This document shows, one piece after another, positions 34,968 through 54,497 of a stretch of 64,000 bases of DNA (position 1 is the stretch's first letter; the number at the start of each line of letters is the position of its first letter). This DNA is from Escherichia coli (GTDB taxonomy: Bacteria > Pseudomonadota > Gammaproteobacteria > Enterobacterales > Enterobacteriaceae). The stretch lies in assembly GCF_003790525.1 (NCBI RefSeq), contig NZ_CP033635.1; one strand, given 5' to 3'. A model generated the notes under the pieces. It made no database searches and had not been told where the DNA came from. It saw nothing but the letters and a program-made list of their open reading frames with translations. The position numbers were made by a program, and so were the translations under genes.

Positions 34968-35006
34968 CGTAGGCCGGATAGGGCGTTCACGCCGCATCCG
35001 GCAGCC
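34968..35006. repeat. REP (repetitive extragenic palindromic) element
   Basis: GTAGGCCGGATAGGGCGTTCACGCCGCATCCGGCAGCC matches REP consensus; intergenic between yhdP and tldD. Confidence 0.8.
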
Positions 35007-35034: not shown

Positions 35035-36495
<1,461 letters not shown>

Positions 36496-36622
36496 TAATT
36501 TCAGTATTTTCAGAAGGATAATTAATCCTTCTCCGTGTACGAACGGTCCCCTCGCCCCTCTGGGGTTAGGGTGAGGGGAACCCGTTGGCACAGGTTTGTA
36601 CTACGTAACAGTACAATATTAA

Positions 36623-37552
36623 TTACTTCTCTTTCCCGCGCCCGTGCATCTCCTGAAACAATTTACCGACCTCAACAAAATAATCCGTCAGCGAGTTGAT
36701 CACGACCTGTACCTTCAGCGGTAGCTTATCTTTTTCGGTATACAACGCATAAACCGGGCGTGGATCTGACTGGTAACGCGGCAGCAGGATCTCCAGTTCC
36801 CCGCGATTGATCTCGTTGATCACCCACATCAGCGGCACGTAGGCGATCCCGGCACCCGCCGTCAGCCAGCGCACCAGCGTCATCGGATCATTAGTCACAA
36901 ATCTTCCTTGTGGGATCAGGCGAGTCGAGATCCCTTCCGGTGCGATCAGTTCAAATTCATTGTCGGGCCGCACGCTGTATTCAAGCCATGAATGACTACT
37001 CAAATCGGCGGGTTTTTCCGGTATGCCGTATTGTGTGAGATAGCTTTTCGCGGCGCACACCACCATCGGCATCGCGCCCAGACGGCGGGAAAACAGGCTG
37101 GAATCCTGCAACGCGCCGACGCGGATCACCACATCCAGACCATCGGCAATCAGGTCGGGGGCAGGAATTCCGGTAACCAGATTGACGCTCAAACCTGGGT
37201 ATTCTTTCAGCATTTTTGCTGTCAGCCCGGCGAGAACATTTTGTGCCATAGTTGAAGAACAGCCAATGCGCAGCGTCCCGATGGGGGTGTTATTGAAGGC
37301 ATACAGTTGCTCATGAACATCCTGCACTTCATGGAGCATCCGACGGCAGCCCTGGTAGTAAATTCTACCGGCTTCGGTCAGGCCAATGCTGCGTGTGCTA
37401 CGGTTTAACAGCTTTACCTGTAACTCATCTTCCAGTTTTGACACCGTCTGACTGATGGACGAAACGCTCATCTGTAGCTGTCTGGCGGCGGCGGTAAAAG
37501 AGCCAAATTCAACTACTTTGGCAAACACCGACATGCGTTTTAGTCGTTCCAT
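36623..37552 (-). CDS. aaeR: LysR-family activator of aaeXAB
   Basis: 309 aa, N-terminal LysR HTH, divergent from aaeX. Confidence 0.9.
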   Translation of the reverse strand: MERLKRMSVFAKVVEFGSFTAAARQLQMSVSSISQTVSKLEDELQVKLLNRSTRSIGLTEAGRIYYQGCRRMLHEVQDVHEQLYAFNNTPIGTLRIGCSSTMAQNVLAGLTAKMLKEYPGLSVNLVTGIPAPDLIADGLDVVIRVGALQDSSLFSRRLGAMPMVVCAAKSYLTQYGIPEKPADLSSHSWLEYSVRPDNEFELIAPEGISTRLIPQGRFVTNDPMTLVRWLTAGAGIAYVPLMWVINEINRGELEILLPRYQSDPRPVYALYTEKDKLPLKVQVVINSLTDYFVEVGKLFQEMHGRGKEK

Positions 37553-44961: not shown

Positions 44962-46329
44962 TTAACGCATCAGCAGATAGATGCTTTCATTGCCGCGTAC
45001 AATTTGCAGGGCGATGATGGCCGGTTTTGCCGCCAGCACTTTACGCATTTCAGCAATCGAGTTCACCCGATCGCGGTTGACGCCAATGATCACATCGTCT
45101 TTTTGCAAGCCAGCCTGAGCAGCTGGGCTTCCTTTGACAACCTCATCGATCTTAATACCTTTGCCGCCATCTTTTAGCTGACCATCGCTCAACGTTGCAC
45201 CTTCCAGCGCTGGCGTGATCATTTCAGCGCTGGCCGACGAAGAGGTGCTGGTATCAAGCGTCACTTCTACTTCCAGTGGTTTGCCGTTACGCAGCAGGCC
45301 AAGTTTCACTTTTGTGCCCGGCTCGGTGGTCGCGATACGAGAGCGCAACTCAGCAAAGCTATTCAGCGGTTTGCCGTTGAGGCTGGTAATAATATCGCCC
45401 GCTTTGATGCCCGCTTTTGCCGAGCCAGAACCTGGCAACACTTCGCTGACAAACGCGCCACGCTGCACGTCAAGGTTGAAGGCTTTGGCGATATCGGCAC
45501 TCATCTCTGTGCCTTTGATGCCTAACAGACCGCGTTTGATTTCACCGAAGTCGATAAGCTGCTGCGCCAGTGTTCGCGCCATATTACTGGGGATGGCAAA
45601 TCCAATCCCGACGCTCCCACCGCCAGGCGCAAGGATTGCAGTGTTGATGCCAATTAACTCACCGTTAAGGTTTAACAGTGCACCGCCGGAGTTACCGCGG
45701 TTAATGGAAGCATCTGTCTGGATAAAGTTTTCAAGACCTTCAAGATTCAACCCGCTGCGGCCTAATGCGGAAACAATGCCAGAGGTGGCGGTTTGCCCAA
45801 GGCCAAATGGGTTACCGACCGCCACGGCAAAATCACCGACGCGCAATTTATCGGAGTCGGCAATAGCGATTTGCGTTAATTTGCTCGGGTTTTGAATTTG
45901 CAACAGGGCGATATCGCTCTGGTCATCGCTACCAATCAGTTTTGCATCAAACTCGCGCCCATCATTGAGCTGAATACTGATTTTCTGTGCCTGATTAATC
46001 ACATGGTTGTTGGTCAGCACATAGCCTTTACTGGCGTTGATGATGACACCGGAGCCTAAACCTTCGAAGGGTTGTGCAGGTTGATCCGGTAAATCATCAC
46101 CAAAAAACTTTTTGAATTCTTCCGGGATTTTCTGTCCCTGACTGGCCGTTCCTTCCACCCGTACGCTCACCACTGCCGGAAGCACTTTTTCCAGCATTGG
46201 GGCCAGACTGGGGAGAGGGGCCTGATCGGCAACCTGGCCTGGAATCGACGCAACGGCCTGAAATGACGCCGAGAGAGTTAACCCGACACTTAACGCTAAT
46301 GCACTCAACAGCTGGGTTTGTTTTTTCAT
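44962..46329 (-). CDS. degQ: periplasmic HtrA-family protease
   Basis: 455 aa from MKKQTQLLSALALSVGLTLSASFQAVA; GNSGGAL motif, two PDZ. Confidence 0.93.
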   Translation of the reverse strand: MKKQTQLLSALALSVGLTLSASFQAVASIPGQVADQAPLPSLAPMLEKVLPAVVSVRVEGTASQGQKIPEEFKKFFGDDLPDQPAQPFEGLGSGVIINASKGYVLTNNHVINQAQKISIQLNDGREFDAKLIGSDDQSDIALLQIQNPSKLTQIAIADSDKLRVGDFAVAVGNPFGLGQTATSGIVSALGRSGLNLEGLENFIQTDASINRGNSGGALLNLNGELIGINTAILAPGGGSVGIGFAIPSNMARTLAQQLIDFGEIKRGLLGIKGTEMSADIAKAFNLDVQRGAFVSEVLPGSGSAKAGIKAGDIITSLNGKPLNSFAELRSRIATTEPGTKVKLGLLRNGKPLEVEVTLDTSTSSSASAEMITPALEGATLSDGQLKDGGKGIKIDEVVKGSPAAQAGLQKDDVIIGVNRDRVNSIAEMRKVLAAKPAIIALQIVRGNESIYLLMR

Positions 46330-54389: not shown

Positions 54390-54497
54390 GTTTTTTCCCC
54401 TCGCTCGCCCCTACCGGGTGAGGGGAAATAAACGCATCTGTACCCTACAATTTTCATACCAAAGCGTGTGGGCATCGCCCACCGCGGGAGACTCACA

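Follow-up and report, generated by a model that had tools for sequence, protein, structure and literature searches.

The two palindromic elements considered here, one between tldD and aaeR (site 1) and the other between nanA and nanT (site 2), are most likely copies of BoxC, an already known family of dispersed repeats, the first copy being shortened and the second reduced to a bare hairpin; they are thus real but ordinary. Both lie in a 64-kb stretch of Escherichia coli DNA (hereafter the window, 64,000 nt; Table 1) and both are intergenic: site 1 (CCCCTCGCCCCTCTGGGGTTAGGGTGAGGGGAA) falls in the 127-nt spacer of a convergent gene pair, and site 2 (CCCCTCGCTCGCCCCTACCGGGTGAGGGGAA) is found in the intercistronic spacer between the nanA stop codon and the nanT start codon, inside one operon. 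They have in common a left arm of 8 nt (CCCCTCGC) and a right arm of 12 nt (GGGTGAGGGGAA), and they are the sole matches to the pattern CCCCTC-N5-35-GAGGGG in the 64 kb, whereas 0.02 matches are expected from shuffles and none of 100 shuffled windows reached the observed count. The initial annotation of this DNA had described two motifs with common arms; both are real, but the boundaries were slightly off, as site 1 starts at 36548 and not at 36547, and site 2 ends at 54427 and not at 54426. It had also set the pair apart from a canonical REP element, correctly, given that the sequence in question has the look of a canonical REP and no relation to either site, but the "perfect palindrome" that it placed beside site 1 is in fact an inverted repeat with 8-bp arms separated by 5 nt. 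Over 601 nt around site 1, a span that takes in tldD and aaeR, the window is 100% identical to several complete genomes.

Table 1. Positions of the two elements and of surrounding features in the window
Feature	Position	Strand	Description or basis
G-quadruplex motif GGGTATCGGGGTAATGGGCGGG	~8545-8566	-	Canonical four-tract motif
REP-like sequence	34968-35006		Looks like canonical REP
tldD	35050-36495	+	Convergent with aaeR
AT-rich inverted repeat	36512-36532		AGAAGGAT-AATTA-ATCCTTCT
BoxC copy (site 1), tldD-aaeR spacer	36539-36581	-	C-rich consensus strand on minus; 22-copy profile, K-12 orthology
Site 1 RNA hairpin in tldD 3' UTR	36542-36586	+	16 pairs, 11-nt loop, outer pairs AACGG/CCGUU, no U-tract after
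Site 1 palindrome	36548-36580		CCCCTCGCCCCTCTGGGGTTAGGGTGAGGGGAA
Site 1 block (TMECO notation)	36549-36558		CCCTCGCCCC
Site 1 block (TMECO notation)	36562-36565		GGGG, truncated purine block
Site 1 block (TMECO notation)	36569-36578		GGGTGAGGGG
AT-rich inverted repeat	36597-36617		TTGTAC-TACGTAACA-GTACAA
aaeR	36623-37552	-	Convergent with tldD
Third, weak BoxC profile match	46209-46228		Rejected as chance
nanA stop codon	54387-54389		
Two-block BoxC-like hairpin (site 2)	54390-54433 (core 54397-54427)	+	Fold, profile, alignments; T-run/A-run flanks lengthen stem
T-run extending site 2 stem	54391-54396		Polymorphic
Small hairpin GTGGGC-ATC-GCCCAC	54468-54482		Directly upstream of nanT Shine-Dalgarno (GGGAGA)
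nanT ATG	54498		

BoxC is a GC-rich intergenic dispersed repeat of roughly 50 bp that occurs in E. coli and its relatives and has been described since 1992 (Bergler 1992). According to Holder et al. (2015, PMC4666352), TMECO, BoxC, and the PIT elements of Hoyne and Maher are the same thing, and the HPG1/HPG2 motif of Kaplan et al. (2016, PMC5100583) is the same element as well. By using an nhmmer profile built from 22 published copies, taken from the family files of Cozzuto et al. (2008; PMC2267715, supplement 69), site 1 was detected in the window with E = 6.2e-11 over profile positions 2-50, with a 6-column gap. The K-12 tldD-aaeR sequence is letter-for-letter identical to eco:13_BoxC (Cozzuto et al. 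2008, PMC2267715), and the K-12 ortholog of site 1 corresponds to TMECO no. 14 (3,390,529-3,390,494; Holder et al. 2015, PMC4666352, Table 1) and to HPGQ no. 37, between aaeR and tldD (Kaplan et al. 2016, PMC5100583, Table 1). The 51-nt BoxC consensus was found in 5,425 of 5,426 complete E. coli genomes at a median of 19 places per genome (range 1-35), with no annotated feature over them among the best places listed. Site 1 is therefore a member of the BoxC/PIT/TMECO/HPG1 family by profile similarity, orthology, copy number, and location, which agrees with the earlier suggestion of a small dispersed repeat and with its expectation of further copies genome-wide. The same repeat is reportedly also treated in work by Bachellier from 1999, and the name PIT element is said to come from Hoyne and Maher in 2000 and 2002. 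In addition, K-12 3,390,494-3,390,529, the ortholog of window positions 36549-36578, offers an example of one family carried under separate names. Rfam covariance scans of both regions gave only chance-level scores (best 18.3 and 16 bits versus gathering thresholds of 40 and 71), and the K-12 RefSeq feature tables have no repeat annotated at tldD-aaeR, at nanA-nanT, or downstream of fabI, the last being a place where the tables of Holder (PMC4666352) and Kaplan (PMC5100583) contain a BoxC copy. A third profile match in the window, which lies inside a 469-aa ORF, was discarded as due to chance.

Full BoxC copies consist of a pyrimidine block and two purine blocks of ~10 nt, with four G-tracts on the G-rich strand, and neither window copy has this three-block structure: the window allele of site 1 has three G-tracts, its middle block being cut to GGGG, and site 2 has two blocks. 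At site 1 the incomplete structure results from a secondary 6-nt internal deletion (one GGGNNA hexamer, relative to the family consensus and K-12), since the K-12 and O157 alleles possess all blocks. Alignment of the window with seven E. coli alleles reveals a length series in the G-rich arm, with four G-tracts in K-12 (GGGGTGAGGGTTAGGGTGAGGGG) and O157 (GGGGAGAGGGTTAGGGTGAGGGG), three in the window and BL21 (GGGGTTAGGGTGAGGGG), and two in AVS0051 (GGGGTTAGGGG) and 23CRST024 (GGGGTGAGGGG). The two-tract alleles occur on two flanking haplotypes, one window-like and one K-12-like, implying that they arose at least twice, and the K-12-like one corresponds to an exact 12-nt deletion between two GGGTGAGGG direct repeats. 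To describe how common these alleles are, we sampled 60 records evenly spaced down the ranking of 5,415 matches, with the number of tracts inferred from length only: 32 records (about 53%) have the same length as the window (three tracts), 21 (about 35%) are 6 nt longer (four tracts), 6 (about 10%) are 6 nt shorter (two tracts), and 1 (about 2%) is split by an IS element. These figures agree with an earlier sample of 30 records. We propose that the window strain lost its hexamer by slippage between the short direct repeats of the element itself. The "degenerated" TMECO copies and the raised variability at these loci that were described by Holder et al. (2015, PMC4666352) are consistent with the site 1 alleles. 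In NZ_OW967795.1 (isolate 538), an IS4-like ISEc13 was found inside the G-rich arm of the site 1 BoxC copy, right after GGGGTT; in the sequence obtained for this locus (positions 215-372), it takes the place of the flank on the aaeR side.

The allelic series bears on the proposal that such elements act as non-B DNA, either as switches between G-quadruplex, hairpin, and duplex forms or as intrastrand triplexes, and thereby regulate their neighbours or promote instability. The G-rich strand of the consensus is a canonical four-tract G-quadruplex motif, and circular dichroism (CD) evidence exists for both G-quadruplex and hairpin forms (PMC5100583); triplex formation in vitro and higher between-strain variability at these loci have been reported (PMC4666352), and alleles differing by hexamer steps at site 1 would fit local instability. 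However, neither window copy contains four G-tracts or three triplex blocks, the canonical G-quadruplex motif at site 1 is restricted to four-tract alleles, and about two thirds of the sampled E. coli genomes carry three- or two-tract alleles at this site, so that a quadruplex or triplex is dispensable here. Moreover, DMS footprinting in vivo gave no support for a stable triplex (PMC4666352), and the indels can also be accounted for by simple slippage between direct repeats of 9 bp with a 12-nt spacing. A role as non-B DNA thus appears quite unlikely. By contrast, all length alleles of site 1 keep the hairpin (-27 to -33 kcal/mol in the tldD-sense RNA), and the hairpin is the feature kept by every site 1 allele and every Escherichia species examined. 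The only canonical four-tract G-quadruplex motif in the 64 kb is unrelated to BoxC (Table 1).

Judging from the alignments, site 2 most likely represents an end-state of BoxC decay, in which the outer pyrimidine block and one purine block are left and which has become fixed across the genus Escherichia. It was the second-best match of the BoxC profile in the 64-kb search (E = 0.018, profile positions 18-43, with a 4-nt insertion), and a small search confined to the spacers recovered the Escherichia copies of site 2 at E of about 1e-3. Its minus strand, TTTCCCCTCACCC-GGTA-GGGGCGAG(CGAG)GGGAAAAAA, matches two-tract alleles of site 1 (such as GTTCCCCTCACCCCAAAGGGGCGAGGGGACC) in each block and also aligns with type-B BoxC copies that have T-run and A-run flanks (such as eco:17). 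When the 43-mer of site 2 was searched by BLAST against 5,426 genomes, a median of 1 place per genome and no extra copies were found, implying that site 2 itself is not a multiplied variant. Thus, the description of the pair as one dispersed repeat, which holds for site 1, does not extend to two equivalent copies, because site 2 is much reduced and its 43-mer is single-copy. The relic would have lost its internal repeats and thereby become stable: the 181-nt region around it has at least 95% identity in all 5,408 E. coli genomes having this region.

Examination of the nanA neighbourhood in 80 species genomes, in which the spacer after the nanA stop codon was read, provides further evidence on the origin of site 2. 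The mini-hairpin is present in six other Escherichia genomes (E. albertii, E. whittamii, two Escherichia sp., and two E. coli), and 5 of its 21 stem pairs vary across the genus while none is broken, all changes being transitions on one side of the stem, each of which leaves a standard pair in the sense RNA; two-sided compensatory changes were not found in the site 2 stem among the Escherichia genomes. In Kluyvera intermedia and K. cryocrescens, a three-tract BoxC-like element occupies the position of site 2 and is followed by the same conserved pre-nanT sequence, and the nanA-nanT spacer contains two full BoxC copies in Enterobacter sp. kpr-6, two copies in Pseudocitrobacter faecalis, and five in the 397-nt spacer of P. 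vendiensis. These full or three-tract elements at the same spot in other genera indicate that site 2 is most likely a decayed BoxC. REP elements are found at the corresponding position in Citrobacter, Salmonella, Enterobacter, and Lelliottia, and private hairpins follow nanA in Raoultella, Atlantibacter, Edwardsiella, and others. It is also conceivable that site 2 is an independent, locus-specific hairpin that converged on G/C-rich arms and does not derive from BoxC, which would be in line with the borderline E value of its profile match, with its occurrence at essentially one place per genome by BLAST, and with its absence from the 22-copy set, from Table 1 of Kaplan, and from entries 1-21 of the 23 TMECO entries. 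We consider this unlikely, as its arms and loop position match the two-tract alleles of a proven BoxC locus base for base, its T-run and A-run flanks are those of type-B BoxC copies such as eco:17, and recognisable BoxC elements are located at the same position, with the same downstream sequence, in Kluyvera, Enterobacter sp. kpr-6, and Pseudocitrobacter.

Several other observations were made in this spacer. The T-run that extends the site 2 stem reads TTTTTT in the window, TTGTTT in K-12, and TTCTTT in other Escherichia, and is one T shorter in E. coli E69. The small hairpin directly upstream of the nanT Shine-Dalgarno sequence belongs to a block conserved across Escherichia, Kluyvera, Enterobacter sp. 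kpr-6, and one Klebsiella MAG, and the K-12 Rho termination coordinate 3372577 maps just after its ortholog. In addition, CACSKA010000008.1, labelled 'Chryseobacterium sp. 18061', carries an enterobacterial nanA that is 87% identical to that of E. coli and a spacer nearly equal to that of Citrobacter sp. 18056; this assembly is probably mislabelled or contaminated.

Both sites give stable hairpins when folded as RNA, so the structural part of the initial annotation was borne out. The sense strand of site 2 folds at -30.6 kcal/mol (z = -5.2), and site 1 folds at -29.0 kcal/mol in the sense strand (z = -2.4) and at -25.6 kcal/mol in the antisense strand; at both sites the sense-strand RNA folds better than the antisense owing to G-U pairs, and pairing in the sense RNA is retained at all five stem pairs of site 2 that vary in Escherichia. 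The whole tldD-aaeR spacer forms three consecutive hairpins, none with a U-tail (z = -5.0 for the plus strand and -6.5 for the minus strand), with site 1 bracketed by two AT-rich inverted repeats that are largely conserved among the aligned E. coli alleles. We also folded the first 80 nt after nanA in the 77 species with a nanA-nanT spacer of at least 40 nt, irrespective of the repeat family present, and obtained median values of -30.9 kcal/mol for the fold and -2.4 for z (dinucleotide shuffles), with z below -2 in 46 of the 77 species. Such strong folds after nanA could reflect functional convergence or, equally, a spacer that tolerates the insertion of palindromic repeats.

Strong GC-rich stem-loops located just past stop codons might be taken for intrinsic (Rho-independent) terminators of tldD, aaeR, and nanA, and the initial annotation had indeed raised a structured terminator as one possibility. 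This is very improbable. No U-tract follows the stem at either site on either strand, with the T-run of site 2 lying upstream and its A-run downstream of the stem, and consensus scans gave no terminator-like site and no relevant promoter. Furthermore, nanT, nanE, and nanK are located downstream of site 2 in the same operon, whose transcription must read through it, and Rho-dependent readthrough has been detected downstream of both sites. In the assays of Hoyne and Maher (2002), as recounted by Holder et al. (PMC4666352), BoxC/PIT elements acted neither as promoters nor as terminators and left RNA polymerase and gene expression unaffected. We infer that neither copy terminates transcription.

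A different arrangement is suggested by data on Rho. Dar and Sorek (2018, PMC6061677) reported that the ends of Rho-dependent transcripts lie immediately past stable stem-loops lacking a U-tract, which protect against PNPase and RNase II and have Rho-loading sites downstream, and that REP elements play this 3'-protective role at a quarter of such ends. In K-12, the data of Adams et al. (2021, PMC7815308, supplementary file 2) include a Rho termination region at 3390148(-), antisense to aaeR (Rho score 6.0), and another at 3372577(-), in the nanA-nanT spacer (Rho score 2.1). The former lies about 340 nt beyond BoxC along the tldD transcript; the latter comes about 60 nt after the nanA hairpin, 3 nt short of the nanT start. 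These positions are coarse, because the regions were called with 800-nt windows. Since the layout at both sites matches the picture drawn by Dar and Sorek, we adopted the same mechanism for them, and consider it probable that sites 1 and 2 are BoxC copies whose hairpins block 3'-5' exonucleases after Rho termination further downstream. In such a mechanism, the elements would be transcribed within the tldD 3' UTR and the nanATEK mRNA, Rho would stop transcription at some distance downstream of the hairpin, and PNPase and RNase II would trim the transcript back until stopped by the hairpin, which might thus set and stabilise the 3' end of the tldD mRNA and, relative to nanT, that of a nanA-only mRNA segment. 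The exonuclease-blocking step is carried over by analogy at both sites, and a role in protecting or processing RNA 3' ends is plausible. The Term-seq tables of Adams et al. (PMC7815308) list no transcript 3' ends at either hairpin, and tldD is missing from their curated list of 3' ends, where nanA has a single entry that falls inside the gene. As the cells were grown without sialic acid, expression of nan had probably not been induced.

Evidence from the family as a whole is less favourable to a function in RNA. BoxC elements in K-12 show no orientation bias relative to transcription (PMC4666352), and among the tandem gene pairs in Table 1 of Kaplan (PMC5100583) the C-rich strand is in the mRNA in 6 cases and the G-rich strand in 3, again with no clear bias, which speaks against a family-wide, strand-specific function of the RNA. 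The main rival to exonuclease blocking is that the elements are neutral repeats on whose effects selection does not act at either locus. In this view they are old BoxC insertions decaying by slippage, and their hairpins remain only as a by-product, since the internal repeats are lost by slippage and the outer arms stay behind. We regard this as a less likely but serious alternative. The tests published so far, to the extent that they are covered in PMC4666352, found no function, site 1 is highly length-polymorphic, the family lacks orientation bias, and one isolate tolerates an IS insertion inside the site 1 element. Nevertheless, neutrality does not readily explain why site 2 is so uniform in the 5,408 genomes mentioned above, why it has persisted among Escherichia species with no stem substitution that breaks a pair, or why a strong hairpin directly follows nanA in nearly every genus. 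The BoxC elements themselves probably spread and persist as near-neutral repeated DNA.

The position of site 2 leads to a more specific suggestion. Its stem starts 1 nt past the nanA stop codon. REP elements within 15 nt of stop codons reportedly slow terminating ribosomes, as described by Liang, Rudd and Deutscher in 2015, and the site 2 stem, being this close to the stop codon, may also do so. We mention, as a tentative and rather doubtful idea, that the nanA-nanT hairpin could be a domesticated BoxC remnant which, once its unstable internal repeats were gone, turned into a fixed intercistronic RNA element of the Escherichia nan operon that sets the nanA:nanT ratio through stabilisation of an mRNA segment and/or ribosome stalling, and that in other genera the same need could have been met independently by REP elements, full BoxC copies, or private hairpins.

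Since 1992, at least four names have been given to BoxC, a family of unproven function; as it was already known, the present finding in itself matters little. The two loci are nevertheless informative. The nanA-nanT hairpin shows the appearance of a fully decayed BoxC, and the four-, three-, and two-tract series at tldD-aaeR, which keeps the hairpin and loses the potential to form a G-quadruplex or triplex, as has happened in the window strain, could provide a ready-made test of ideas about a G-quadruplex or triplex switch.

In comparison with known systems, both sites resemble BoxC in having the terminal blocks of the family (CCCCTCRCCC and GGGTGAGGGG), an intergenic position, and a GC-rich hairpin. 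They differ from it in that site 1 lacks one hexamer and thus has three instead of four G-tracts, and site 2 has lost one of the three blocks and carries a 4-nt duplication (CTCG); a canonical G-quadruplex and a three-block triplex are impossible at either window copy. Like BoxC, REP elements and BIMEs are small, GC-rich, palindromic intergenic repeats that are mostly located at gene 3' ends or between cistrons, but they are unrelated in sequence: the imperfect palindrome of the GCCGGATG...CATCCGGC type is absent from sites 1 and 2, and the copy number of BoxC is far lower (about 20 versus several hundred). We know of no RAYT-type transposase for BoxC. In RNA form, the hairpins of REP elements are a barrier to 3'-5' exonucleases. 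The likeness to the protective 3' stem-loops (PMC6061677), which are a functional class and not a sequence family, is one of layout only: at both sites there is a stable stem-loop with no U-tail, followed by Rho termination downstream.
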